This document shows positions 3,246-48,215 of a DNA stretch of 64,000 bases, in pieces (position 1 is the stretch's first letter; each line of letters begins with the position of its first letter). The notes under the pieces are model-generated. The model saw only the letters and a list, made by a program, of their open reading frames with translations. It did not search any database and had not been told where the DNA came from. Position numbers and translations under genes: made by a program. Source of the DNA: Patescibacteria group bacterium. Lineage in GTDB: Bacteria; Patescibacteriota; JABMPQ01; JAQVVF01. The stretch is taken from the NCBI GenBank assembly GCA_041662665.1, contig JBAZSC010000002.1, positions 165,234 to 229,233 on the forward strand. Direction: 5' to 3'.

Positions 3246-3329
3246 CAACAAAAAACAAAAACATTTTAAAAGTAAATTTTTATTTACTAATTAACAAATA
3301 AAACTAATAAACTAATTAAACTAAATATT

Positions 3330-5021
3330 ATGAACAATAAATTTATTCCAAAATTAAAAATTATTCCGCTAGGCGGATTAGAAGAAATAGGTCGAAATAT
3401 GACCTTAATTGAATATGCAAGAGACATCATCATCATTGATATGGGCTTGCAATTCCCAGAAGAAAACATGCCTGGAATTGATTATATCATTCCAAACATC
3501 GCCTATTTGAAAGGCAAAGAAAATTATATTAGAGGCGTTATTATTACTCATGGTCATTTTGACCATATCGGCGCTATCCCTCACATCATGGATCGCATTG
3601 GCAACCCAACTATTTTTACTGCCAAATTAACAAGGGCAATGATTGAGAAACGCCAGGAAGAATTTGATAAAAAAGAAAAATTATCAATTTATACAATTTC
3701 AGAACAAGACCAAATTCAGCTTGGCCAATTTAAAGTTGAATTTTTTAAAGTCAATCACAACATTCCAGATGGCTATGGAGTAATCGTCCACTCGCCTGTC
3801 GGTACGATCATTCATACTGGCGATTTTAAATTTGATCCAACACCAGTTGGAGACATGCCAGCAAATAAAGAAAAATTAGCCAAAATTGGAAAACAAGGAG
3901 TTCTCGCATTAATGTCAGATAGCACTGGTGCTGAAAATTCAGGTCATTCCATTTCTGAAAAAACGATTATGGAAACATTAAACAAAATTATTTCTGAAGC
4001 AAAAGGCAGAATCATTTTAGCTACTTTTTCATCACTTATTACTCGTATTCAACAAGTTATTTTCATTGCTGAAAAATTAGGCAAAAAAGTTGCAATCGAA
4101 GGTTTTTCTATGAAAACAAATGTTGAAATCTGCAAAAAGCTAGGCTATTTAAAAACTGGCAAGAAAATTCTCGTCAGTACAAAACAAGCTTTGAAATTAC
4201 CAAAAGATAAAATAATTATTTTATGCACTGGTGCTCAAGGTGAAGAAGCAGCTGTTCTAATGCGTATTGCCAATCAAGATCACAAAGAAATAGAAATCGA
4301 AAAAGGAGATTCTGTTATTTTTTCATCATCAGTAATTCCAGGAAATGAAAGAAGTGTTCAAAGATTAAAAGATAATTTGACTAGATTAGGTGCTGATATT
4401 TTTCATTACAAAATGATGGATGTCCATTCCAGCGGTCATGGTTTTATTGATGATCTAACAGAAATGATTACCTTAACCAAACCAAAATATTTTATTCCAG
4501 TTCATGGAAATCATTTCTTATTAAAATTACATGGCGATATTGCAAGAAACACAAATATCGTCAAAGATCCAAATATCTTTGTTTGCGACAATGGCCAAAT
4601 CATGGAATATCAAAAACAAGGCGAAACAGTTGTCGGCGAATTAACAAAACGAAAAGTTCCAGCAGGACATGTTATGGTTGATGGACTTGGCGTCGGCGAT
4701 GTTTCAAATGTTGTTTTAAGAGATCGTCAAGCTATGGCAGAAGATGGCATGTTCGTGATAATCTTAACTATGGATGGAAATACTGGAAAATTAGTCAGCG
4801 ATCCAGATATCATCTCTCGTGGCTTTGTCTTTATGAAAGAATCAAAAAGATTAATTGGCCAGACCAAAGAAAGAATCAAAAAAATCTTAATTGATCATGA
4901 TCCAAAGACTTCATCAAATGATACTTATATCAGAAATAAAGTCCGCGATCAAATTGGTCAATTCTTATTTACCAGAACTCAAAGAAGACCAATGATTCTT
5001 CCAGTCATCATCGAAGTTTAA
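3330..5021 (+). CDS. rnj: Ribonuclease J (metallo-beta-lactamase/beta-CASP RNase)
   Basis: The product has the HxHxDH-type motif ITHGHFDHIGAIP, the N-terminal motif IIPLGGLEEIGRNM, and a 563-aa length typical of RNase J. Confidence 0.85.
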   Translation: MNNKFIPKLKIIPLGGLEEIGRNMTLIEYARDIIIIDMGLQFPEENMPGIDYIIPNIAYLKGKENYIRGVIITHGHFDHIGAIPHIMDRIGNPTIFTAKLTRAMIEKRQEEFDKKEKLSIYTISEQDQIQLGQFKVEFFKVNHNIPDGYGVIVHSPVGTIIHTGDFKFDPTPVGDMPANKEKLAKIGKQGVLALMSDSTGAENSGHSISEKTIMETLNKIISEAKGRIILATFSSLITRIQQVIFIAEKLGKKVAIEGFSMKTNVEICKKLGYLKTGKKILVSTKQALKLPKDKIIILCTGAQGEEAAVLMRIANQDHKEIEIEKGDSVIFSSSVIPGNERSVQRLKDNLTRLGADIFHYKMMDVHSSGHGFIDDLTEMITLTKPKYFIPVHGNHFLLKLHGDIARNTNIVKDPNIFVCDNGQIMEYQKQGETVVGELTKRKVPAGHVMVDGLGVGDVSNVVLRDRQAMAEDGMFVIILTMDGNTGKLVSDPDIISRGFVFMKESKRLIGQTKERIKKILIDHDPKTSSNDTYIRNKVRDQIGQFLFTRTQRRPMILPVIIEV

Positions 5022-5022
5022 A

Positions 5023-5067
5023 CCACAGATTTGCACAGATACTGAACAGATTTAACACAGATACTAA
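5023..5067. repeat. CACAGAT tandem array (reverse orientation of the ATCTGTG family)
   Basis: The sequence is ccacagatttgcacagatactgaacagatttaacacagatact. Confidence 0.7.
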
Positions 5068-5091
5068 AACAAATTAAACAAAAATAAAATT

Positions 5092-5520
5092 ATGTTTTTA
5101 CACAAAGAGTTAAGTTGGAAAATTATTGGTATTTGTATGAAAATTCAAAATGAATATGGTTCAAATCATAATGAAAGAATTTATCATTCATTACTAATAG
5201 AGCAATTTACTCTTCAAAAAATCAATTTTTTATCCAAACCCAAAATTCCAGTTTTATCTAAACAAACAGGCAAAAAAATTGGCCTATATGAACCTGATTT
5301 TCTCATCGAAAAATTAATAATCTTAGAAATCAAAGCCAAACCTTTTAATTTTAAAAAAGATGAAACTCAATTACAAGAATATCTGAATACAACGCCTTAT
5401 GAAATTGGTTATTTAGTAAATTTTGGTTTTCAAAATAAATTATATTTCAAAAGAATTATCTGTACCAATAATCTCAAAAATTTCCTAAGCCTTCCTAAAA
5501 AATTATATGCGTCTCAATAA
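5092..5520 (+). CDS. GxxExxY family protein (PD-(D/E)XK-like)
   Basis: The N-terminus GICMKIQNEYGSNHNERIYHSLL matches the GxxExxY signature. The gene is flanked by inverted arrays of the ATCTGTG repeat (5023-5067 and 5533-5582). Confidence 0.6.
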   Translation: MFLHKELSWKIIGICMKIQNEYGSNHNERIYHSLLIEQFTLQKINFLSKPKIPVLSKQTGKKIGLYEPDFLIEKLIILEIKAKPFNFKKDETQLQEYLNTTPYEIGYLVNFGFQNKLYFKRIICTNNLKNFLSLPKKLYASQ

Positions 5521-5532
5521 ATCAGTAGTAAA

Positions 5533-5582
5533 GTATCTGTGTCTCTGTGAACATCTGTCTCGTATCTGTGTAAGATCTGTGG
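5533..5582. repeat. ATCTGTG tandem array (period about 10-11 bp)
   Basis: The sequence is gtatctgtgtctctgtgaacatctgtctcgtatctgtgtaagatctgtgg. Confidence 0.7.
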
Positions 5583-5607
5583 TAAACTAATATCTAACAA
5601 TAAAAAT

Positions 5608-6597
5608 ATGTCTAAAGTTATTTTCTCAGGTATTCAACCAAGTGGAGAATTACACATTGGCAATTATTTCGGTGCAATTAAAAACTGGTTAGAATTACAA
5701 AAACAAGAAAGTCTTTGCTATTTCTGCGTTGTTGATTTACATGCCATTACTATCGATTATGATCCAAAACAATTTCAAGACAAAATTCTAGACACTATAG
5801 CAACTTATCTTGCGTGCGGAATTGATCCAGAAAAATCAATTATTTTTGTTCAATCAAAAGTCAAAGAACATGCTGAATTAGCCTGGCTTTTAAACACTAT
5901 TACTCCTATTTCCGAGCTTGAAAGAATGACTCAATACAAAGATAAGCGCGCCCAACATATCAAAAACGTTAATATTGGCCTTCTAGATTATCCAGTTTTA
6001 CAAGCCGCCGATATATTGCTTTATAATACAAACATCGTTCCAGTGGGCCAGGATCAAAAACAGCATATTGAATTAGCAAGAACTATTGCCAATAAATTCA
6101 ATACTAAATTTGGAAAGACTCTTACAATTCCAGAACATTTCATTCCAGAAGTTGGCGCTAAAATTATGTCGCTTCTTGAGCCAACCAAAAAAATGTCCAA
6201 ATCCCATAATCCAAAATCATATATTTCTTTATCTGATTCCAAAGAACATATTGAGAAAAAAATAATGTCAGCAGTTACTGATTCTGATAATAAAATATTT
6301 TTTGATCCAGAAAAAAAGCCAGCTATTTCAAATCTATTATCAATCTATCATTTAGCAACTGGCTGGACTTTGCAACAAATTCAAGATAAATATAAAGATT
6401 CAACTAGCTATGCCCAATTTAAAAAAGATTTGGCAGAAAATATAATAAAATTATTGCAACCGATTCAAGATAAAAAACAAGAATTATTAAAAGACGAAAC
6501 TAAGCTTTTAGAAATCTTAGATAATAGCACCAAAAAAGCTCAAACCGAAGCTACAAAAACAATGCTTATTGTTAAGAAAAAAATGGGTTTAATTTAA
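5608..6597 (+). CDS. trpS: Tryptophanyl-tRNA synthetase
   Basis: The class I HIGH motif (GELHIGNYFGA) and the KMSKS motif are present. The length is 329 aa. Confidence 0.9.
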   Translation: MSKVIFSGIQPSGELHIGNYFGAIKNWLELQKQESLCYFCVVDLHAITIDYDPKQFQDKILDTIATYLACGIDPEKSIIFVQSKVKEHAELAWLLNTITPISELERMTQYKDKRAQHIKNVNIGLLDYPVLQAADILLYNTNIVPVGQDQKQHIELARTIANKFNTKFGKTLTIPEHFIPEVGAKIMSLLEPTKKMSKSHNPKSYISLSDSKEHIEKKIMSAVTDSDNKIFFDPEKKPAISNLLSIYHLATGWTLQQIQDKYKDSTSYAQFKKDLAENIIKLLQPIQDKKQELLKDETKLLEILDNSTKKAQTEATKTMLIVKKKMGLI

Positions 6598-6632
6598 ACT
6601 ATTTTAAAGTTTAATAATTAAAATAAAAAAAT

Positions 6633-6770
6633 ATGCCAACATGCAAAGATTGCAAAAATTTCGCTCCAAATCCAACTGATCCAAACAAAGGTGAATGCTA
6701 TGGACACGAAGTTGATGCAAACATGGACTCAGAAAAATGCCCAGCAAAAAGCTTTCAAGCAAAAGAATAA
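6633..6770 (+). CDS. Small Cys-rich protein (45 aa, CxxC...C...C, zinc-ribbon-like), absent from the ORF track because it is under 60 aa
   Basis: The ATG at 6633 opens a frame encoding MPTCKDCKNFAPNPTDPNKGECYGHEVDANMDSEKCPAKSFQAKE. An intrinsic terminator follows directly. Confidence 0.4.
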   Translation: MPTCKDCKNFAPNPTDPNKGECYGHEVDANMDSEKCPAKSFQAKE

Positions 6771-6785
6771 TTGATTTTAAAGAAA

Positions 6786-6818
6786 CAAAAACGAGACCAT
6801 TTCAGCCTCGTTTTTTTA
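6786..6818 (+). terminator. Rho-independent terminator downstream of trpS/small ORF
   Basis: A hairpin AAAAACGAG-N11-CTCGTTTTT is followed by a T-run. Confidence 0.5.
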
Positions 6819-6821
6819 TTT

Positions 6822-6870
6822 ATCTGTGTCTCTGTGCTTTATCTGTAAAGTATCTGTATAAAATCTGTGG
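6822..6870. repeat. ATCTGTG tandem array
   Basis: The sequence is atctgtgtctctgtgctttatctgtaaagtatctgtataaaatctgtgg. Confidence 0.7.
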
Positions 6871-6871
6871 C

Positions 6872-8725
6872 CTAGCCTAATATTTCAAATCTCTCTCCAC
6901 CAATAGAAATTTTTTCTGCTCTCAAAACAAAATCTTCCAAAATTTCATGCACTAACTTATCACATTTCTCTTTTATCTCTTGATATTCTTCATCAGATTT
7001 ATTAATGCCAACTTCCATTCCACAAGCTGCATAAAATTTTATTTTGGGTTCAGTTCCAGATGGTCTAACAACTACTCTGATTGTCTTTTCTTTATTTAAA
7101 TAAAATATTAATGCATTATCTGGAAAACCAATATATTTTCCAACAACTTTATTAGTTTTTGGATCAATAAATTTTTTTTCTAATTGATCTAAAACAGTAA
7201 ACACTTCTAATCCAGAAACTTTAGTTGGCAATTTCGCTCTAAATTTATCCATTATTTTTTTCATTTTATCCATTCCATCCATACCCTTGTAAAAAACAGC
7301 TTGCAACAATTCGCGATAATAACCATATTTTTTCTTTATAATTTCTAATTGTTGATACAAAGTCTTCCCTTCTTTTTTTAACAAACCAGCATATTCACAA
7401 ATTAATAATGCTGCAATTGCACCATCTTTATCTCTCGCATAATCTCCATACAAATATCCATGGCTTTCTTCAGCCCCAAATAAAAATTTATTGCCTTTTA
7501 ATCTTGTATCAATTGCATTGCCAATATATTTAAAACCAACTGGCAAATCTGTTATAACTTTACAACCATTATCTTCGGCAATTTTTGTCAGCAAGTCAGT
7601 AGTTACAACAGTTTTAATCATCATTGTTTTTTTCAAATCTGTTTTTTTACTCAACATTCTTGTTATATAATCCAAAAGCAAAACTCCAATTTGATTGCCA
7701 TTCAAAAATATATATTTTTCTTTTTTTATTGTTTCTGGACTAACAACGCCAATTCTATCAGCATCAGGATCAGCAGCAACCAACACATCAACCTTATTTT
7801 TTTTAGCCTGTTTTGTCCCAAGATCTAAAGAAATTGGAACTTCAGGATTTGGAATTTGTTTTGCAACACTTTTAAAATCTGGATCAAAAGGCATTTGGCT
7901 TTTTACAGTTTCAACTTTTTTGAAACCAACATTTTTCAAAACTGGCAAAAAAGAAGTACTCGCACAACCATTCAAAGGCGTAAATAAAATATGAACGTCT
8001 CGATAATTACCTAATGACAATTTACTTACAGTATCAACAAAAGCTTGATCAATATCTTTACCTAAAATTTTAATCTTTCCAGATTCTTTTGCTTTATTAA
8101 AATCAATTGTTTTTATTTTTTTAACAGCCATGACTTTATTAATAATATTTTTGTCATGAGGAGGAACAATTTGACCGCCATTATCAAAATATACTTTAAT
8201 TCCATTATCAGAAGGAGGATTATGGCTTGCACTAATCATTGCTCCACCGACTGCTTTCATTTTCCTAATTGTAAAAGATATCTGCGGAGTTGATCTAACA
8301 CCCTCATAAAAATATACTTTAAAATTATTTCCAGCAAAAACTGAAGCTGCTGTCTTTGCAAACAATTCAGAATTATGACGAACATCATAAGTCACTACAA
8401 TTCCTTTTTTTAACGCTTTATTCCCAAAAAATTTAATTAGATAATCAGCAAAACCTTGTGCAGATTCAGAAATTGTTCGAACATTAATTCTATTTGATCC
8501 AACTCCCATCATTCCCCTTCTTCCTCCAGTTCCAAAAGGAATAACCTGAAAAAAAGCGTTATTCAAATCATCAACTTTTTCATTATTAATCATCTCAATA
8601 ATTTCATCCCAAAATTTTTCACATTCATCACTATTCAACCAAATTTTTATATTTTTAACAGCCGAATCCACCAAACCTTTTTTCTTTAAACTAAGGAGTT
8701 TAGCATTTATTTCATTTATTTTCAT
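6872..8725 (-). CDS. Phosphoglucomutase/phosphomannomutase (alpha-D-phosphohexomutase family)
   Basis: The active-site serine loop ISASHNPPSDNGIKV is present, and the 617-aa length is compatible with PgcA-type enzymes. Confidence 0.85.
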   Translation of the reverse strand: MKINEINAKLLSLKKKGLVDSAVKNIKIWLNSDECEKFWDEIIEMINNEKVDDLNNAFFQVIPFGTGGRRGMMGVGSNRINVRTISESAQGFADYLIKFFGNKALKKGIVVTYDVRHNSELFAKTAASVFAGNNFKVYFYEGVRSTPQISFTIRKMKAVGGAMISASHNPPSDNGIKVYFDNGGQIVPPHDKNIINKVMAVKKIKTIDFNKAKESGKIKILGKDIDQAFVDTVSKLSLGNYRDVHILFTPLNGCASTSFLPVLKNVGFKKVETVKSQMPFDPDFKSVAKQIPNPEVPISLDLGTKQAKKNKVDVLVAADPDADRIGVVSPETIKKEKYIFLNGNQIGVLLLDYITRMLSKKTDLKKTMMIKTVVTTDLLTKIAEDNGCKVITDLPVGFKYIGNAIDTRLKGNKFLFGAEESHGYLYGDYARDKDGAIAALLICEYAGLLKKEGKTLYQQLEIIKKKYGYYRELLQAVFYKGMDGMDKMKKIMDKFRAKLPTKVSGLEVFTVLDQLEKKFIDPKTNKVVGKYIGFPDNALIFYLNKEKTIRVVVRPSGTEPKIKFYAACGMEVGINKSDEEYQEIKEKCDKLVHEILEDFVLRAEKISIGGERFEILG

Positions 8726-8784
8726 ATTTATTTTTATTACTTTTTATAATAAAAAATGCCGAAGTTTCCTTCGACATTATATTG

Positions 8785-9000
8785 TTATCTTACAAAAGTA
8801 AGCAATCCCAATACCCTTGCTCTTTTAATTGCCTTAGCAACCATTCTTTGGTGTCTTGCGCAATTTCCAGTTCTTCTTGTTGAAGCAATCTTAGAATAAG
8901 GAGTCAAAAATCTTTTTAAAAAATTAATGTCTCGATAATTGATTGTTTCAATTTTTTCCGCGCATAGCATACACGGTTTTCTAAAAATAGTCTCCGCCAT
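8785..9000 (-). CDS. rpsR: 30S ribosomal protein S18
   Basis: The motifs RKPCMLCAEK..INYRDINFLKRFLT..KI..RRTGNCARHQR..AKAIKRAR fit S18. It is the last gene of the rpsF-ssb-rpsR operon. Confidence 0.85.
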   Translation of the reverse strand: MAETIFRKPCMLCAEKIETINYRDINFLKRFLTPYSKIASTRRTGNCARHQRMVAKAIKRARVLGLLTFVR

Positions 9001-9022
9001 AAAATATTATGAATTAAATAAT

Positions 9023-9634
9023 TTAAAATGGAATATCTTCAACTTTAATTTCTTCATCTTTATTAACTTCTGTTGCAACTGGACTTGGCATTGCTTGTGG
9101 CATTACATTTTCAGAAGGCTGTGCTTGCGCAACAGAATTAGCTGGCTCTTCTAATGATATTGATGGTAGATTTTCAGATACAGGTTTTGAAACTGCTCCA
9201 AAGCTTTCTGATTGATTAACTGGTCTTGCAAAAGACTGAGTTTGTGCTTGAGTTTGAACAGGATTTTGATTTGCAAAATTTCCTGAATTAACTGGCTGAC
9301 TTGCACCTCTTGAATCTAGCATAATCATATTTTCTGCAACTATTTCTGTTCTATATCTTTTAACACCATCTTGTCCTACCCAATCGCGAGTTTGAATTCT
9401 GCCTTCAAGATAAACCTTTTTGCCTTTTGATAAATATTGGCTACAAATATCAGCTAATTTTCTCCAAGTAACAATATTGTGATATTCAACTTTTTCTTGT
9501 CTTTGACCTGATGCATCTTTCCACATCAAATTAGTTGCTACACTGAAACTGCAAACATTAGATCCCGAAGGAATAGTTCTTGTTTCTGGATCACGAGTCA
9601 ATCTTCCGATAATCATTGCTTTGTTCAAATCCAT
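9023..9634 (-). CDS. ssb: Single-stranded DNA-binding protein
   Basis: The N-terminus MIIGRLTRDPETR is an OB-fold SSB signature, and the C-terminal acidic tail ends in DIPF. Confidence 0.9.
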   Translation of the reverse strand: MDLNKAMIIGRLTRDPETRTIPSGSNVCSFSVATNLMWKDASGQRQEKVEYHNIVTWRKLADICSQYLSKGKKVYLEGRIQTRDWVGQDGVKRYRTEIVAENMIMLDSRGASQPVNSGNFANQNPVQTQAQTQSFARPVNQSESFGAVSKPVSENLPSISLEEPANSVAQAQPSENVMPQAMPSPVATEVNKDEEIKVEDIPF

Positions 9635-9820
9635 AGTTTTCTAGAGCTCTACCCCTTATCCGCCAAAATCCCGAAAATTTCGGGAATCAAACGGAGTTTC
9701 CCAAATGCTTAAGCTATTTGTAAGCTATGGGCAAGGGCGAACTCGTATTTATTTATATAAAATTTTTGTTTAAAAAATTTTTTTTACCTATTTTTAATTT
9801 CATCAAAAATTTTTATTGAC

Positions 9821-9880
9821 TTCTGCGTTTTTCGCGTCAGCTTCCGCATATTCCGCGTCAGCTTCTGCGTAGGTCTGCGG
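9821..9880. repeat. CGCGTCAGCTTC(C/T)GC tandem repeat just downstream of rpsF
   Basis: The sequence is ttctgcgtttttcgcgtcagcttccgcatattccgcgtcagcttctgcgtaggtctgcgg. Confidence 0.55.
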
Positions 9881-11183: not shown

Positions 11184-11230
11184 TATCTGTGTTATCTGTC
11201 ATAATCTGTAATTAATCTGTGTTAAATTTG
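11184..11230. repeat. ATCTGTG tandem array immediately upstream of ychF
   Basis: The sequence is atctgtgttatctgtcataatctgtaattaatctgtgttaaatttgtag. Confidence 0.7.
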
Positions 11231-12300: not shown

Positions 12301-12420
12301 AAGAATCTTGAATTTAGAATCTAGAATCTTAAATAGAATATGGAATAAAGAATTTAGAATTCTCTATTCTCTATTCTAAATTCATTCTAAATTCAAGATT
12401 CCAGATTCTAAATTCTTATA
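12301..12420. repeat. AT-rich imperfect palindrome built from AATTTAGAAT/TCTAAATTC units (ychF-efp intergenic region)
   Basis: The left half gaatttagaatctagaatcttaaatagaat is the reverse complement of a right-half segment attctatt...tctaaattc. Confidence 0.6.
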
Positions 12421-12439: not shown

Positions 12440-12997
12440 ATGTTAAGCATGAACGATCTAAAATCAGGAACAATTATTGATTACGAAGATCAACCTTACG
12501 AAGTTTTATCCAAAGACTTTGTTAAAAATGCTCAAAGACGTCCAGTAATGTTTACCAAATTAAAAAACTTAATTTCTGGAAAAATCATTGAACATTCTTT
12601 CCAACAAAGCGATCGCTTGAATGAATCTGACGTTACCAAAAAAGACGCTCAATATATGTATGAAGACAATGGCAATTATAATTTCATGGACAGCGAGACT
12701 TATGAACAATTCTCTTTAGCCAAAAATATTCTAGGCAACAAAACTGATTTTTTATTAGAAAATGGCACAGTAAAAATTGTTTATTATAACAATGATCCAA
12801 TTAACATTGAATTACCTATTAAAATGGAATTCAAAATTATTGAAACTGCTCCAGGCGTAAAAGGAAATTCTGCAACAAACGCCATGAAAGAAGCAACAAT
12901 AGAGACTGGCAAAAAAATTCAAGTTCCATTATTCGTCAAAGAAGGAGATTTGATCAGAATTGATTCTAGAACTGGTGAATATTTGGAAAGAGTTTAA
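12440..12997 (+). CDS. efp: Elongation factor P
   Basis: The 185-aa product has three OB/KOW-like domains, and the N-terminus NDLKSGTIIDYEDQPYEV is typical of EF-P. The true start may be the Met at 12449. Confidence 0.9.
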   Translation: MLSMNDLKSGTIIDYEDQPYEVLSKDFVKNAQRRPVMFTKLKNLISGKIIEHSFQQSDRLNESDVTKKDAQYMYEDNGNYNFMDSETYEQFSLAKNILGNKTDFLLENGTVKIVYYNNDPINIELPIKMEFKIIETAPGVKGNSATNAMKEATIETGKKIQVPLFVKEGDLIRIDSRTGEYLERV

Positions 12998-13046: not shown

Positions 13047-13129
13047 ATATCCGTAATTTCCGAATATCCGAATATCTTAATTTCCGTCAGTACTTTATGG
13101 ACTTTAAAAACTTTATGAACTTTAGAAAC
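13041..13129. repeat. Composite tandem repeats: ATATCCGAAT family followed by AACTTTA(A/T)AA family (downstream of recA)
   Basis: atatccgtaatttccgaatatccgaatatcttaatttccgtc ... actttatggactttaaaaactttatgaactttagaaactt. ATATCCGAAT-family arrays also occur at 20911-20945, 25291-25330 and 44621-44650. Confidence 0.65.
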
Positions 13130-14188
13130 TTAGTCAACTTTCGCTGCTTTAATCAAGTCCCAAATTTTCTTTTCAATCATATTTGCAACTTTTGGATTAT
13201 CTCGCAAAAATTGTTTTGAAGCTTCTCTACCTTGACCCAATTGCGCTTTATCAAAAGTATACCAAGATCCAGACTTGCCCAAAACTTTGTAAACAACTCC
13301 AGTATCCAATAAATCACCAACTCTTGAGATTCCTTCATTATACATAATATCAAATTCTGTCGTCTGAAATGGCGGAGCAACTTTATTTTTAACAATTTTT
13401 ACTTTCACTCTATTTCCAATAATTTTATCATTCATTTTAATTTGAGCTGCTCTTCTTAATTCAATTCTCACTGAAGAATAAAATTTCAATGCTTTTCCAC
13501 CAGTTGTTTCTTCTGGATTGCCAAACATCACACCAATCTTCATTCTTATTTGATTCAAAAATATTACTGTTGTTTTTGAACTAGAAATTGCAGCTGTTAA
13601 TTTTCGAAGAGCTTGCGACATTAATCTTGCATGCAAACCCATATGAGAATCACCCATATCGCCTTCAATTTCTGCGCGCGGAGTCAAAGCTGCTACAGAA
13701 TCGATTACAATTACATCAACTGCGTTTGATCGAACAAGAGTTTCAACAATTTCCAAAGCTTGCTCGCCTGTTTCTGGCTGAGAAATTAGCATATCATTAA
13801 TATTAATGCCAATTTTTTTTGCATAATCAGGATCCAAAGCATGTTCAGCGTCAACAAATGCCGCTAATCCGCCTTTTTTCTGAATATTAGCAATGATATG
13901 TTGTGCCAAAGTCGTCTTGCCAGAACTTTCCATACCAAAGATCTCAATAATTCTTCCTCTTGGCACTCCGCCAATTCCCAAAGCAATATCCAAAGAAATT
14001 GATCCAGTAGTAATTGCATCAATTTGCATTGTCTTTACTTCTCCTAACTTCATTATCGCTCCTTCACCAAAACGATCCTTAATCTGATCAATCGCTGATT
14101 CCACAGCCTTTGCCTTTCCCTCCATCGCACTACTTTTTTTTGCATCTTTCGCCATAAAATTAAATTGTTTAATTACTAAATTGCTCAA
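13130..14188 (-). CDS. recA: Recombinase RecA
   Basis: The Walker A motif [13 protein letters not shown] is present, and RecA L1/L2-loop context is conserved throughout. Confidence 0.95.
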
Positions 14189-14224
14189 TTGTTAAATCGC
14201 TAAATTGTTAAAACAAACGAACAT

Positions 14225-14330
14225 CGCCAACAATTTAACAATTCAACAATTTAACATTTTTTAACTAGTCTAACTTATCTAACTCGTTTTTTACTTTACG
14301 AACTTTAAAAACTTTAAGAACTTTATAACT
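14225..14330. repeat. Composite repeat module: AATTGTTAAAT inverted units, then TAACTAGTCTAAC/TATCTAACTCG, then AACTTTAAAAACTTTAAGAACTTTATAACT (recA upstream region)
   Basis: The same three repeat families occur in combination at 48125-48215. AACTTTA units also occur at 13091-13129 and 32691-32740. TAACTAGTCTAAC units also occur at 521-560 and 44551-44590. Confidence 0.65.
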
Positions 14331-17982: not shown

Positions 17983-19023
17983 TTAACCTCCATAAAAACA
18001 TAAAGGATCAGGACCTTGCAACATATTGCCATTATAAGCAGAAAATCTTTGTGCTAAACATCCTCCTTTACATGAATCCAACAAAACGCATTTTCTACAT
18101 TTACCTTTTAATCTTTTATAACCATAACTTTGGAATCTTCTAAATATATCAACCATTGGATGTTTTAGCCAAAAATATTCCAAATTATTTTCCAAAATAT
18201 TACCAAATGCCGGATATTTCATTGCCGAACAATATGTCACATCGCCATTTGCTCTAATCAAAATCTTTTCTTGACCAATATTACAACTTCTAATTGGAAA
18301 ACTTTCATCATAACTATATCGTCTATCAATGTTATGTCCTAATATCAAATCAAAACGTTGAGGTATCAAATAAGAGAAAAATCTTTGCGCGACTCTAAAT
18401 TGTTCTTGATTCAAAACTAATTCTGGATGATTTGCGCAACTGCCTTGAACAACCAATCTCAATAAGTGCCAGTTCTTTACTCCCAGATCTCTCAACAAAT
18501 CATACATCAAACCCAATTCAAGATAATTCACTGCCATTACAGTAGTATGCACTTCAACTTTTAATCCTCTTGCAACAGCTAAGGCAATACTTGCCATCAA
18601 CAAATCAAATGATCCTTCTAGTCCTGTCACTTTTTCATGCGTTTCTTTCATCCCATGCAAACTAAAAACTATTCTGTCATCTTTATGAGAATAACGTCTC
18701 CAAAAATCAAAGAAAGCTTCTTTCAAAGAAAACATTTTTCCTTTTTCATTTTTATAAATAGCGCTCGTCTGCAATCTTACAGAAAAACCAAATCGCCATG
18801 CATAAAGCATTAAATCAATACAATCTTTTCGCATCAAAAGCTCGCCTCCGCTAATCGTAAAAATACTTGCCCCAAGCCATTTTGCTTGTCTCAAAATATC
18901 CATTATTTCTGCCTGCGATAATTCTCTTTCAAAAGGCAAACCAGCATTTGAAGAACAATGAAGGCAACTTAAAGCACATTGATTTGTGATCTCAATTGAA
19001 ATTTCTTTCAATAGCCTTGGCAT
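17983..19023 (-). CDS. Radical SAM enzyme with C-terminal SPASM domain
   Basis: The CALSCLHCSS (Cx3Cx2C) motif is present. A C-terminal Cys cluster (CNIGQ...YCSAMKY...CRKCVLLDSCKGGCLA) is typical of SPASM auxiliary Fe-S domains. A strong RBS (AAAGGAGGGAGA) precedes the gene. Confidence 0.8.
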   Translation of the reverse strand: MPRLLKEISIEITNQCALSCLHCSSNAGLPFERELSQAEIMDILRQAKWLGASIFTISGGELLMRKDCIDLMLYAWRFGFSVRLQTSAIYKNEKGKMFSLKEAFFDFWRRYSHKDDRIVFSLHGMKETHEKVTGLEGSFDLLMASIALAVARGLKVEVHTTVMAVNYLELGLMYDLLRDLGVKNWHLLRLVVQGSCANHPELVLNQEQFRVAQRFFSYLIPQRFDLILGHNIDRRYSYDESFPIRSCNIGQEKILIRANGDVTYCSAMKYPAFGNILENNLEYFWLKHPMVDIFRRFQSYGYKRLKGKCRKCVLLDSCKGGCLAQRFSAYNGNMLQGPDPLCFYGG

Positions 19024-28744: not shown

Positions 28745-28803
28745 AATCTGTATGCATCTGTGTCTCTGTATCAAATCCGTTATAAATCTGTGTAAAATTT
28801 GTG
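28745..28803. repeat. ATCTGTG tandem array in the rpoB upstream region
   Basis: The sequence is aatctgtatgcatctgtgtctctgtatcaaatccgttataaatctgtgtaaaatttgtg. Confidence 0.7.
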
Positions 28804-29023
28804 CGCTAAAGATAACAAAAAATGACCAAAAATTAACACTTTTGGCTTATTTAAAGTCTTTTATAAATATCACGCCCGAGGCTATTCACCTCTGCTTTGA
28901 ATATCATACTTCAAGTATAAGCGTTTTATTTAAAAAGTCAAGCTATTTTTAATTAAAAACAATATTTAGGCTTATCTAAAACAAAAATAAAGCTATCAAA
29001 TTTTCTTATCCACAACGACTTCT

Positions 29024-33194: not shown

Positions 33195-33340
33195 CTCAAA
33201 ACTCTAAATCCTAAATTCTAAATCCTAAACAAACTCAAAACCCAAATATCCAAATTCCAAAAACTCCGAAGTGCACTTTTGAATTTTATATTTTAGTTAT
33301 TTAAATTTGTTTAGAATTTAGAATTTAGTGCTTAGAATTT
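33195..33340. repeat. AT-rich imperfect palindrome of CTAAATCCTAAATTC / GAATTTAGAATTTAG units between convergent genes
   Basis: ctaaatcctaaattctaaatcctaaac ... gtttagaatttagaatttagtgcttagaatttt. Confidence 0.6.
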
Positions 33341-34731
33341 TAACGACTTAGGATTTTTTCCAATTCTTCTCTCACAACTACCCTGTCATCCCACGCAATT
33401 CCTTTTCCACTTCCAACTGGTCCAGTCATTATCATTTGCTCGCAACCTTTTCCAGTTATCAAAACCACATCGCCCTTCTGGGCTTTTTTTATTGCCAAAG
33501 CAATGGCATCTCGTCGATTCAAAATTTTAAATAAATTCTCATTCAATCGTTTTGGTTTAGCATTCGAAAAAGTATTTGATTTATTCGAAAAAGAATTTGA
33601 GTGATTCAACACGCCTGCCACAACATCATCGATAATGGTCTTCGGGTCATCATCATAAGGATCTTCATTCGTCACAATCACAATGTCAGCATATTTTGCA
33701 GCTAGTGCTCCTAGCTTTGGTCTTCTTGCCACATCACGTCCTCCACCAGTTGATCCTAAAACAGAAATTATCCGTCCCCGAGTACCTAAAAAACTAAGTA
33801 ACTTAGTAACTGCTTGATAAACATTTTCTAAAGCATTTGGCTCAAATGCATAATCAACAATTACTTTAAAATCTTGTCCTTCTTCAATAAACTCCATTTT
33901 GCCTAAATGCAATTTTACTTTTTTCAAAATATTTGCGCAATCTTCAAGTTTCATTTTATATAATGAACAAACCGCAATTGCAGACAACGCATTATAAACA
34001 TTATACTCACCTAACATATTCAAACTAAAATCAATGTCATTATTTATATTCGAAACTTCACATTTTGAATTCATTTGACATTTCGGATTTAAAATTTGAA
34101 ACTTTACTTGCAATCCTTCTGTTTTAATATTAACTGCTCTAAAATTGCAATTTTCATTTTTAATTCCAAATGTTAATTTTTCTCTAACTAAAAAATCCAA
34201 AAATTCAGGCGCATATTTGCTATCTGCATTTGCGACAATTTTATTTTTTACAACTTTGAAAAATTTTAATTTTGCTTTTTTATAATTCTCAAATCCACCA
34301 TGCGCTTCAACATGTTCTGAAAATAAATTTGTAAAAACTCCGCAATCAAAATCAATGCCTTTATGACGATATTGTTCAATTCCTTGCGAAGTTACTTCAA
34401 TAATACAAAATTTACAGCCTTCTTTAACAGCTTCTTTCAAAAATTTTTGTGTTTTAAATCTGCCAAGCATTGTCTGTTTGTACTTGCTGATCCATTCTTT
34501 ATCGCCAATTGCAAAATTTGATGTTGACATCATCGCGCATTTTTTTCCAGATTTTTGTAAAATTTGATAAATTAAATTGCATGTTGTTGTCTTACCAGTT
34601 GTGCCAGTTACTCCAATTACTGTCAATTTTTTTGATGAATGACCATACAAAAAAGCAGCTAAACCAGCCAAAACAAAATGATAAGCTCTCAAAATCGGCT
34701 TTGGAATAATTTTTCTTAAAATATTCATCAT
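33340..34731 (-). CDS. Mur ligase family protein (MurE-like)
   Basis: The motif VIGVTGTTGKTTT is a Mur-ligase P-loop. The C-terminus TNEDPYDDDPKTIIDDV...DRRDAIALAIKKAQKGDVVLITGKGCEQ is MurE-like. An in-frame tandem repeat is inserted (HSNSFSNKSNTFSN). Confidence 0.7.
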   Translation of the reverse strand: MMNILRKIIPKPILRAYHFVLAGLAAFLYGHSSKKLTVIGVTGTTGKTTTCNLIYQILQKSGKKCAMMSTSNFAIGDKEWISKYKQTMLGRFKTQKFLKEAVKEGCKFCIIEVTSQGIEQYRHKGIDFDCGVFTNLFSEHVEAHGGFENYKKAKLKFFKVVKNKIVANADSKYAPEFLDFLVREKLTFGIKNENCNFRAVNIKTEGLQVKFQILNPKCQMNSKCEVSNINNDIDFSLNMLGEYNVYNALSAIAVCSLYKMKLEDCANILKKVKLHLGKMEFIEEGQDFKVIVDYAFEPNALENVYQAVTKLLSFLGTRGRIISVLGSTGGGRDVARRPKLGALAAKYADIVIVTNEDPYDDDPKTIIDDVVAGVLNHSNSFSNKSNTFSNAKPKRLNENLFKILNRRDAIALAIKKAQKGDVVLITGKGCEQMIMTGPVGSGKGIAWDDRVVVREELEKILSR

Positions 34732-38125: not shown

Positions 38126-38214
38126 AGATATAATACAAATATACGAATTTATACAAATGATACAAATATGCGAATTCGTATATTCGCAACATTTGCATTA
38201 TTTGTATATTCGTA

Positions 38215-41316: not shown

Positions 41317-41394
41317 TATCTGTGTTATTTGTGTAAAATTCTTATTAATTTGTCATCAATCTGTGTAATTTGTGTTCATCTGTAATAAATCTGC
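41317..41394. repeat. ATCTGTG/ATTTGTG tandem array
   Basis: The sequence is atctgtgttatttgtgtaaaattcttattaatttgtcatcaatctgtgtaatttgtgttcatctgtaataaatctgcc. Confidence 0.7.
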
Positions 41395-44528: not shown

Positions 44529-44632
44529 AAATATTTATTAATTAATTTAACTAATCTAACTGGTCAAACAAATTTAACTCGTCAATTTTACTAATTTTAC
44601 CAATTTTACTAAATAATCAATATCCGAATATC

Positions 44633-45220
44633 TTAATATCTCGAATATTCACATCCGCAGTAACGCTGTCTATAAATTCCATTTAATTTACACAACTCAA
44701 TACTTCTTTTATATAATCCGCTAAAATCTTGTTCCAAAAATTTCACTCCATATTTCTTTTCTAATTCAAGACCGATTCTATTTATCATCATTGTATTCTT
44801 GTATGGCGAAATAGACAAGGTCGTTCCAAACATTTCAAAGCCATTCAACATCGCAAATTCTGCTGTTTTTTCTAATCTGAATTTAATGCAAGCCTCGCAT
44901 CTTTTTCCGCCTTCCTTTTCTTTTTCTAAACCAACAACTTTTTTTTGCCAATTCTTAACATCATTTTTCGGAACAGCGAATTTTAGTTTATCAATTTTAG
45001 CATTATCAATTTTACTTATTTTACTAATTTTACTAACATTATTAATTTTACCAATTTTACTCGCAAGTTTATTCAAATTCTCTAATCTTAAATCATATTC
45101 GCTTTTTGGATAAATATTTGGATTATAAAAATAGCCAGTAATTTCATAATCTGGTTTTATTTTTTCTAAAACTGCACTCGCACATGGGCCGCAGCAAATA
45201 TGTAATAATAATCTTGTCAT
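44633..45220 (-). CDS. queH: Epoxyqueuosine reductase QueH (DUF208)
   Basis: The motifs LLLHICCGPCAS...YFYNPNIYPKSEY and the C-terminal CGCEYS are present. An in-frame tandem repeat encodes NNVSKISKISKIDNAKIDKL. Confidence 0.8.
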   Translation of the reverse strand: MTRLLLHICCGPCASAVLEKIKPDYEITGYFYNPNIYPKSEYDLRLENLNKLASKIGKINNVSKISKISKIDNAKIDKLKFAVPKNDVKNWQKKVVGLEKEKEGGKRCEACIKFRLEKTAEFAMLNGFEMFGTTLSISPYKNTMMINRIGLELEKKYGVKFLEQDFSGLYKRSIELCKLNGIYRQRYCGCEYSRY

Positions 45221-47802: not shown

Positions 47803-47849
47803 ATCTGTGTATCTGTGTAAATCCGTCTTAAATCTGTGTTAAATCTGTC
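47803..47849. repeat. ATCTGTG tandem array upstream of lon
   Basis: The sequence is atctgtgtatctgtgtaaatccgtcttaaatctgtgttaaatctgtc. Confidence 0.7.
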
Positions 47850-48124: not shown

Positions 48125-48215
48125 ATATAAACATTTAACAATTAACTATTAACATTTAACTTTACAAACTTTAAGAACTTTATAACTAGTCTAATTTGTC
48201 TAACCTATCTAACTC
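48125..48215. repeat. Composite repeat module (ATTTAACAATT, AACTTTAAGAACTTTATAACT, AGTCTAATTTGTCTAACCTATCTAACTCG)
   Basis: This is a paralogous arrangement to 14225-14330. Confidence 0.65.

Follow-up and report, generated by a model that had tools for sequence, protein, structure and literature searches.

A GxxExxY nuclease gene between inverted heptamer arrays: a candidate selfish cassette at the rnj-trpS junction of a Patescibacteria genome

The DNA considered here is a stretch of 64,000 nucleotides from a Patescibacteria group bacterium (contig JBAZSC010000002.1 of assembly GCA_041662665.1, positions 165,234 to 229,233), and we refer to this whole stretch as the window. Its GC content is 31.7%, and the nearest species in the genome collection are uncultured Patescibacteria metagenome-assembled genomes (MAGs). 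Near its start, the two essential genes rnj, encoding RNase J, and trpS, encoding tryptophanyl-tRNA synthetase (TrpRS), are separated by a single open reading frame (ORF) for a GxxExxY protein, and arrays of a short repeat lie on both sides of this ORF in inverted orientation. A first-pass annotation proposed that the gene and its arrays form a cassette with imperfect terminal inverted repeats, and offered as an alternative that the arrays are two promoter elements facing in opposite directions. We analyzed the arrangement in the window, at the same junction in relatives, and around GxxExxY genes of other genomes. The unit of gene and arrays recurs at dozens of places in many bacteria, which makes a compact cassette, selfish and mobile, the most likely interpretation.

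The ORF at 5092-5520 encodes 142 amino acids and matches PF13366 (PDDEXK_3) over residues 6-122 with 81.9 bits (cutoff 22, E 5.8e-23) and TIGR04256 (GxxExxY) with 74.8 bits (cutoff 35). No other Pfam or NCBIfam family was found in it, and no DDE, HUH, serine or tyrosine transposase. Across 37 homologues, E28, P68-D69, E79-x-K81, Q93, N110, F111 and R121 show no variation. These invariant residues make up the PD-(D/E)XK signature (a glutamate in helix 1, PD and ExK) and a Q-x-x-x-Y element, the latter being typical of the RecB/Cas4 branch. With both models above their cutoffs, the nuclease-like identity first given to the gene holds: its product is a bona fide GxxExxY/PF13366 PD-(D/E)XK protein with an intact catalytic motif. 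An AlphaFold (AF2) model made from an input of 35 rows had a predicted local distance difference test score (pLDDT) of 92.5. The solved folds closest to it were Cas4 SSO0001, lambda-type exonucleases and a restriction-enzyme nuclease domain, at template modelling scores (TM) of ~0.45-0.5; these are generic PD-(D/E)XK neighbours with modest scores, and we did not take the fold search as an identification. A sequence search of the PDB found no relative. We also set aside an identity as an anti-phage defence or phage protein, as neither PADLOC nor PHROGs gave a match. A profile search with the family collected 22,185 clusters at 50% identity (E <= 1e-3), and a 2012 survey of the PD-(D/E)XK superfamily lists the function of PF13366 as 'Unknown' (PMC3424549).

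The arm upstream of the gene starts 1 nt past the rnj stop codon with CCACAGAT (5023-5030) and continues with CACAGAT (5034-5040), AACAGAT (5045-5051) and CACAGAT (5056-5062), after which degenerate units reach to 8 nt before the GxxExxY ATG. Downstream, ATCTGTG occurs exactly at 5535, 5564 and 5575 and with one mismatch at 5543 (CTCTGTG) and 5553 (ATCTGTC). The outer end of this second arm, ATCTGTGG (5575-5582), lies 25 nt 5' of the trpS ATG and, as the first-pass annotation had noted, is the exact reverse complement of CCACAGAT. Terminal inverted repeats are present, with an outer 8 bp that are exact and arms of ~45-60 bp that are imperfect. In the window as a whole, the exact 7-mer ATCTGTG occurs 20 times, about four-fold over the 5.0 +/- 2.1 expected from 100 dinucleotide-preserving shuffles, none of which reached 20. 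Eighteen of the 20 fall within seven short intergenic arrays, each of 4-5 units at 10-11 bp spacing, and all seven can be aligned as one ~55-bp, five-unit element. The left arm (A1, units at 5024-5062) carries the heptamer on the minus strand; the right arm (A2, 5535-5581) and the remaining arrays through A7 all carry it on the plus strand. Within an arm the units are direct repeats and not palindromes, and no arm is self-complementary. The inverted arrays around the gene are as the first-pass annotation described them, and the heptamer arrays of the window are a correct and non-random observation.

If the cassette is an inserted unit, the junction that it occupies should also exist without it. 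A scan with RNase J returned 57 related loci. L001 and L002 are 100% identical to the window and hence uninformative on strain variation within its species. In ~30 of the 57 loci trpS follows rnj directly, and the two genes mostly either overlap or have 10-15 bp between them. One close relative, L004 (RNase J 94% and TrpRS 85% identical), has a gap of 16 bp between the two genes, with neither the GxxExxY gene nor arrays; homology to the window ends at the rnj stop codon and restarts ~25 nt before the trpS ATG. In another, L003 (RNase J 96% identical), an unrelated 161-aa ORF without arrays lies between rnj and trpS. No ATCTGT-type array was found in the ~21 kb available from each of these two relatives, and where the window has the single array A3 they have, at the orthologous place, an unrelated spacer of 22-36 bp. 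The window's order recurs in two MAGs of a distant lineage, L022 and L023 (GC 48-50%, RNase J 52-53% identical to the window's), where rnj is followed by ACAGAT units, a GxxExxY gene, ATCTGT units and trpS, with a terminator hairpin between the left arm and the gene. In a neighbor-joining tree, which carries no support values, the window protein is not the sister of the L022 and L023 proteins. Given an empty close relative, filled distant ones and proteins that are not sisters, we read the cassette as optional at rnj|trpS and its arrival there as a probably repeated event. Other inserts have repeatedly split the junction in further relatives, but these are not array-flanked cassettes. We therefore rejected the idea of a hotspot for such cassettes: the other inserts are ordinary accessory genes, some on the opposite strand, and have no arrays. 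One of them is a pair of 80-aa ORFs resembling a small toxin-antitoxin pair (L052, 11962-12448).

The nearest homologues of the GxxExxY protein, 55-66% identical, lie in other operons, as single co-oriented genes: three lineages have the gene between atpD and atpC, and a further one has it between ruvA and femAB. They too are bracketed by inverted arrays, composed of CACAGAA/TTCTGTG, CACGGAT/ATCCGTG or mixtures of these. A metagenome scan with an alignment of the protein added 80 more loci, and from the collection we assembled 58 non-redundant cassettes for family statistics, using other windows of the same loci as background. The counting pattern was derived from the data, and the orientation control and background used that same pattern. 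On the sense strand, CACNNAW occurs upstream of the gene at 1.83 per 80 bp against a background of 0.13 (14-fold), and WTNNGTG occurs downstream at 1.24 per 80 bp against 0.11 (11-fold), while heptamers in the opposite orientation stay close to background (0.21 and 0.24 per 80 bp). Spacing between units has a sharp mode at 10-11 bp (176 of ~290 intervals; mean ~10.4). The median distance to the arrays is 9 bp at the start codon and 8 bp at the stop codon, and a cassette spans 473-658 bp, its outermost units marking the ends. Variants of the heptamer with AG, AA, GA or GG at the two central positions are matched between the two arms (r = 0.66-0.95). More than 30 unrelated groups of flanking genes are represented, atpD|atpC being the commonest, and in more than 90% of loci the neighbours run in the same direction as the cassette gene. 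The expectation of further GxxExxY copies with the same flanks is thus borne out in related and unrelated genomes, at more than 30 sites, but not within the window, which holds a single copy.

Cultured organisms show the same pattern. Their GxxExxY genes have co-oriented housekeeping neighbours, lying after radA, after ade or between fabD and fabG. In Treponema saccharophilum the gene is flanked by an 11-bp inverted repeat, ACACGGATTCG; in Bacteroides finegoldii by three copies of CACAGAGGA upstream and three of CCTCTGTG downstream; in Bernardetia by CACAGAG and CTCTGTG; and in Gemmatirosa by CGCGGAT x3 facing ATCCGCG x3. Among eight examples from the plasmid database, the flanking arrays are direct and not inverted in two (Prevotella and Fusobacteria) and ambiguous in two more (Sphingomonas and Persicobacter). 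The two direct cases, L154 (Prevotella nigrescens) and L150 (Fusobacteria bacterium ZRK30), have direct flanking copies of a ~40-70-bp heptamer-array block, with ACAAAT x3-4 on both sides of the gene in Prevotella. These may be tandem cassettes.

Arrays also occur without the gene, and almost only in company with the gene family. Counted outside the masked cassette, extra phased arrays have a density of 112 per Mb in loci positive for GxxExxY and of 4.4 per Mb in relatives negative for it (0.92 Mb). The window's own extra arrays, A3 to A7, are five single arms (Table 1). Elsewhere, two arms stand back to back with nothing between them. L063 has two such gene-less inverted pairs, one between atpE and atpF and one after leuS (4694-4802 and 18540-18640), along with a second GxxExxY copy that is pseudogenised, broken by a stop codon. 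Gene-less pairs in forward-then-reverse order are frequent in L065, L074, L081, L093, L123 and L124. A 24.8-kb stretch of Bacteroides finegoldii (L156, NZ_OY725952.1) combines one full cassette with three gene-less pairs, the elements being 62-180 bp long. One of them lies inside the start region of an annotated coding sequence (CDS, 8731-9846), which suggests that this CDS may be mis-annotated. In a search of the Bacteroides record with Rfam, only a tRNA scored above its gathering threshold; the snoR125 model overlaps one gene-less pair at 26.5 bits, far below its gathering score of 100.

Table 1. Genes and heptamer arrays of the window, and gene-less pairs of the Bacteroides finegoldii stretch (L156, in its own coordinates)
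Feature	Coordinates	Strand	Description
rnj (RNase J)	3330-5021	+	Host gene, upstream neighbour; directly abuts trpS in most relatives
Left arm (A1)	5023-5084	+	4 CACAGAT-type units (5024, 5034, 5045, 5056) and degenerate ACAAAT, ACAAAA
GxxExxY gene	5092-5520	+	142 aa; minimal RecB/Cas4-like PD-(D/E)XK nuclease
Right arm (A2)	5533-5582	+	5 ATCTGTG-type units (5535, 5543, 5553, 5564, 5575)
trpS (tryptophanyl-tRNA synthetase)	5608-6597	+	Host gene, downstream neighbour
Solo arm A3	6822-6870	+	5 units; between hairpin 6787-6815 and the stop codon of a minus-strand phosphoglucomutase gene
Solo arm A4	11185-11226	+	4-5 units; 10 nt upstream of ychF start
Solo arm A5	28746-28805	+	Immediately upstream of minus-strand rpoB ORF
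Probable gene-less inverted pair, same heptamer family	38135-38190		ACAAAT/ACGAAT units, then ATTCGT-type units
Solo arm A6	41318-41384	+	Between two minus-strand genes, for a 324-aa protein of unknown function and a DUF2341 protein
Solo arm A7	47803-47849	+	Upstream of minus-strand lon; overlaps 3' end of a 98-aa ORF
L156 gene-less pair 1	5405-5582		Perfect 26-bp terminal inverted repeat; inverted CCACAGAGGA-type arrays
L156 gene-less pairs 2, 3	8749-8890; 12841-12902		2-3 CCACAGAGGA-type units per arm

The first-pass annotation had counted five further arrays in the window and called them promoter-proximal. The count is right; the description is not established: A3 lies in a convergent 3' region, beside a hairpin that is a bidirectional terminator, and a scan of 4900-6900 for the sigma-70 consensus found 12 promoter-like sites, equal to the shuffled expectation, none of which overlaps an array. 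No promoter or terminator was found inside the cassette, which is therefore probably expressed by read-through. On this evidence we discarded the arrays as promoter elements, and a search of 4800-7000 with Rfam covariance models, which gave no match at E <= 1, led us to discard them as a known RNA family.

Comparison among genomes strongly supports the first-pass proposal of a cassette, and its checks on further copies and on presence or absence in relatives came out in favour. We give a probability of roughly 0.5 to the reading that 5023-5582 is one ~560-bp selfish cassette made of a nuclease gene and two terminal arms. It builds on what is observed, namely the architecture and its recurrence, a polymorphism in presence or absence, the association of arrays with gene presence, and a catalytic motif that is intact. 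Each arm has 4-6 heptamers with the consensus CACRRAT pointing inward on each strand, about one helical turn apart. The cassette would have inserted into the very short spacer between the co-transcribed rnj and trpS, in the same orientation as both. Several copies of the nuclease would then occupy the phased heptamers in the two arms, which would serve as the cis-acting ends needed to move or copy the cassette. Arms without a gene, whether solo as in A3 to A7 or back to back as elsewhere, would be non-autonomous derivatives spread in trans. Binding of the heptamers by the GxxExxY protein and the route by which the DNA would move are the parts that we infer, from sequence patterns.

Several observations weigh against this reading or limit it. 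A target-site duplication is not a family feature: direct repeats of at least 4 bp flank 2 of 32 cassettes, compared with 8% of shuffled pairings, so the TAAA(C) found on both sides of the window cassette may be chance. The window has one gene copy, near-identical copies at different sites were not seen, and recent transposition is accordingly not demonstrated. In the neighbor-joining tree, again without support values, the atpD|atpC copies form one clade, which fits a single insertion followed by long vertical inheritance and makes movement rare at best. Solo arms are not the product of a simple two-ended cut-and-paste. Units in Bacteroidota and Gemmatirosa repeat every 9 bp, which is not one helical turn. 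What reads the heptamers may be a host factor or RNA instead of the GxxExxY protein. No relative that might serve as a vector was found on viral contigs. Finally, the comparison with L003 and L004 covers only ~21 kb of each and does not imply that the gene is absent from those genomes as a whole.

The main rival concerns what the arms do, and would be compatible with a cassette that is mobile by another route. It assigns them a role in RNA, where they would pair into a long stem in the rnj-cassette-trpS transcript and loop out the ORF; the stem might be cut by a double-strand-specific RNase, or might place the stop codon of the upstream gene beside the start codon of the downstream one, and would in this way lessen the harm done to the host operon. 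In both the minimum free energy and the centroid fold of 5010-5600, A1 does pair with A2 over nearly its full length (-108.5 kcal/mol; z = -4.9 relative to shuffles), but the same folding is expected from any inverted repeat. The spacers between the heptamers speak against this rival. Their identity is 0.62 in cognate arms and 0.63 in non-cognate arms, so that the former are no more complementary than the latter, and selection thus acts on the heptamers and not on a continuous duplex, a possibility that we accordingly rejected. The position of the arms suits an RNA role, as they adjoin the host stop codon (1 nt here) and often the host start codon (2-9 nt), as do the lack of a terminator or promoter within the cassette, the co-orientation of more than 90% of cassettes with their neighbours, and a PF05635 gene in L060 that is bracketed by inverted arrays of its own. 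An RNA stem nevertheless leaves the sharp 10-11 bp phasing unexplained, the five solo arms of the window are unable to form it, and the terminator hairpin in L022 and L023 means that the two arms there may not share one transcript. We consider this explanation rather unlikely.

Direct repeats phased to one helical turn are a typical feature of sites for multimeric DNA binders, and the arrays could instead be operators, through which the GxxExxY protein or a host factor regulates its own gene together with trpS, ychF, rpoB and lon as a regulon. Arms do lie beside the starts of these four genes, the phasing fits a multimeric binder, and the two arms of a cassette match in their heptamer variants. 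Invariant nuclease catalytic residues are unexpected in a pure repressor, however, and the positions of the arrays are not those of operators throughout: A3 is in a convergent 3' region, and gene-less pairs occupy 3' and intra-operon spacers. Neighbouring genes differ entirely between genomes, in more than 30 contexts, the closest relatives run the same genes without any array, and no promoter consensus accompanies the arrays. A regulon of this kind seems improbable to us.

A lone nuclease gene that lies between conserved genes, has both filled and empty alleles and shows no target-site duplication also recalls a free-standing homing endonuclease that cuts the cassette-free junction and is copied in by repair. 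Small PD-(D/E)XK homing endonucleases exist, I-Ssp6803I being a precedent, and repeated occupation of rnj|trpS (two lineages) and of atpD|atpC (at least 12 loci) fits such a process. The arrays would then be secondary, a by-product of repair or slippage or a protection of the occupied site, rather than transposon-like ends. But conserved inverted arms of several units are neither needed for homing nor carried by known homing genes, gene-less pairs and solo arms at unrelated sites are unexpected, and more than 30 unrelated contexts are hard to reconcile with one long recognition site. We regard homing as quite improbable.

That there is no unit at all, and that two independent promoter-type repeats merely face each other around an ordinary gene, is hardly credible: the repeat does occur at five other intergenic sites of the window, but the correctly oriented arrangement is found at 58 independent loci in several phyla, close relatives lack the arrays, no promoter consensus goes with them, and they abut the ORF (median 8-9 bp).

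Returning to the selfish cassette, its closest functional analogies would be REP (repetitive extragenic palindromic) sequences with their REP-associated tyrosine transposases (RAYTs), and MITEs (miniature transposable elements with inverted repeats) with their parent elements. Without an HUH or DDE transposase, palindromes or a family-wide target-site duplication, it is a member of neither class. As in REP/RAYT systems, a small nuclease-type gene lies between inverted short repeats that are also dispersed gene-free and are abundant only together with the gene family. The enzyme of the cassette, however, is of the RecB/Cas4-like PD-(D/E)XK type and a RAYT is an HUH/Y1 transposase (IS200/IS605-type); the cassette's repeats are non-palindromic heptamers at 9-11 bp and REPs are hairpin-forming palindromes; and the cassette is located inside operons. 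With MITEs (Correia/NEMIS and those derived from insertion sequences) it shares terminal inverted repeats, short gene-less versions (60-180 bp) beside one-gene versions, and insertion polymorphism, but it has no DDE transposase and no general target-site duplication, its ends are phased heptamers, and one-armed copies are common.

Other known systems share single aspects. Homing genes, such as seg and mob of phage T4 and I-Ssp6803I, are likewise small nuclease genes set among conserved, co-oriented essential genes; they occur in filled and empty alleles without target duplication, but have neither conserved inverted arms nor dispersed gene-less derivatives. Intervening sequences of 23S rRNA, some of which carry a PF05635 ORF, are optional inserts in a transcribed essential region with inverted repeats that pair in RNA; the host of the cassette, by contrast, is a protein-coding operon, and its arms are heptamer arrays. 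Tn7, Mu and the plant elements CACTA and Ac/Ds have multiple short binding motifs, inverted, at both ends, and in Tn7 a PD-(D/E)XK protein, the subunit TnsA, takes part in end cleavage. Those elements are large, with DDE transposases and target duplications, whereas the only protein of the cassette is a ~130-aa nuclease.

The window contains further phased direct repeats in its spacers, of unrelated motifs and with periods of 8-10 bp. They lie at 13047-13125, 14270-14325, 44586-44640, 48135-48210 and 3286-3325, and their motifs are ACTTTA x4 (three sites), TTTTAC x3, ATATCCG/ATTTCCG, TCTAAC and TTAACA; ACTAAT x5 is found directly 5' of the rnj ATG. Three gene-less inverted pairs of other motifs are located at 12310-12415, 33198-33341 and 14160-14260. 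They comprise TAGAAT/ATTCTA between ychF and the next gene, CTAAAT/ATTTAG between convergent genes, with 65-nt arms 14 nt apart, and AATTGTT/AACAATT. These pairs resemble parallel systems built on the same plan, and the window contains no resident gene for them. In L060, a PF05635 gene (four-helix bundle; locus positions 610-1130) lies upstream of atpG between inverted arrays of its own (CGAAAT-type on the upstream side, ATTTCG-type on the downstream side), in an ATP synthase operon that also carries DUF559 fragments and a GxxExxY cassette. PF05635 is the family known from 23S rRNA intervening sequences. It and other small orphan genes, as well as the other phased arrays of the window, may represent parallel systems of the same design.

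One further small ORF in the neighbourhood (6633-6770, after trpS) encodes a Cys-rich product of 45 aa (MPTCKDCKNFAPNPTDPNKGECYGHEVDANMDSEKCPAKSFQAKE). It has no counterpart in L004 and is also called as a gene on an identical contig; its similarity to the BssB/TutG family is weak, with a score of 20.4 bits that does not reach the cutoff.

Many proteins in the databases that contain a GxxExxY domain have lengths of 250-900 aa, among them tandem doubles of ~265 aa. In others the domain occupies positions ~455-600, which would be the outcome if the frame of an upstream ORF, for example atpD, continued through an arm without an in-frame stop; at several loci the left arm is indeed entered by the atpD frame.

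More broadly, we tentatively entertain that the whole GxxExxY/PF13366 family is the protein partner of unrecognised pan-bacterial minimal mobile elements, with inverted CACRRAT-type arrays as ends, gene-less derivatives from Patescibacteria to Bacteroides and a preference for the spacers of essential operons. The literature that we consulted on GxxExxY, PF13366/PDDEXK_3, PF05635/TIGR04256 and Bacteroides MITEs does not describe this architecture, but its coverage was incomplete and an earlier description is possible. In kind, the cassette is most likely a selfish nuclease gene with dispersed non-autonomous repeats, of which we found no GxxExxY version described. The bracketed genes, the scattered gene-less arms and the sites in essential operons (ATP synthase, rnj-trpS, fabD-fabG) offer a testable role for PF13366/GxxExxY proteins, that of a nuclease which is selfish and brings its own cis sites. 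For annotation the arms make convenient markers, and spurious 'fusion proteins' at GxxExxY loci may be due to them. The cassette family would explain a share of the repetitive intergenic DNA in the tiny genomes of Patescibacteria and in Bacteroides, and if the selfish cassette is real, it would add a new enzyme class to the few proteins that drive REP- or MITE-like repeats.

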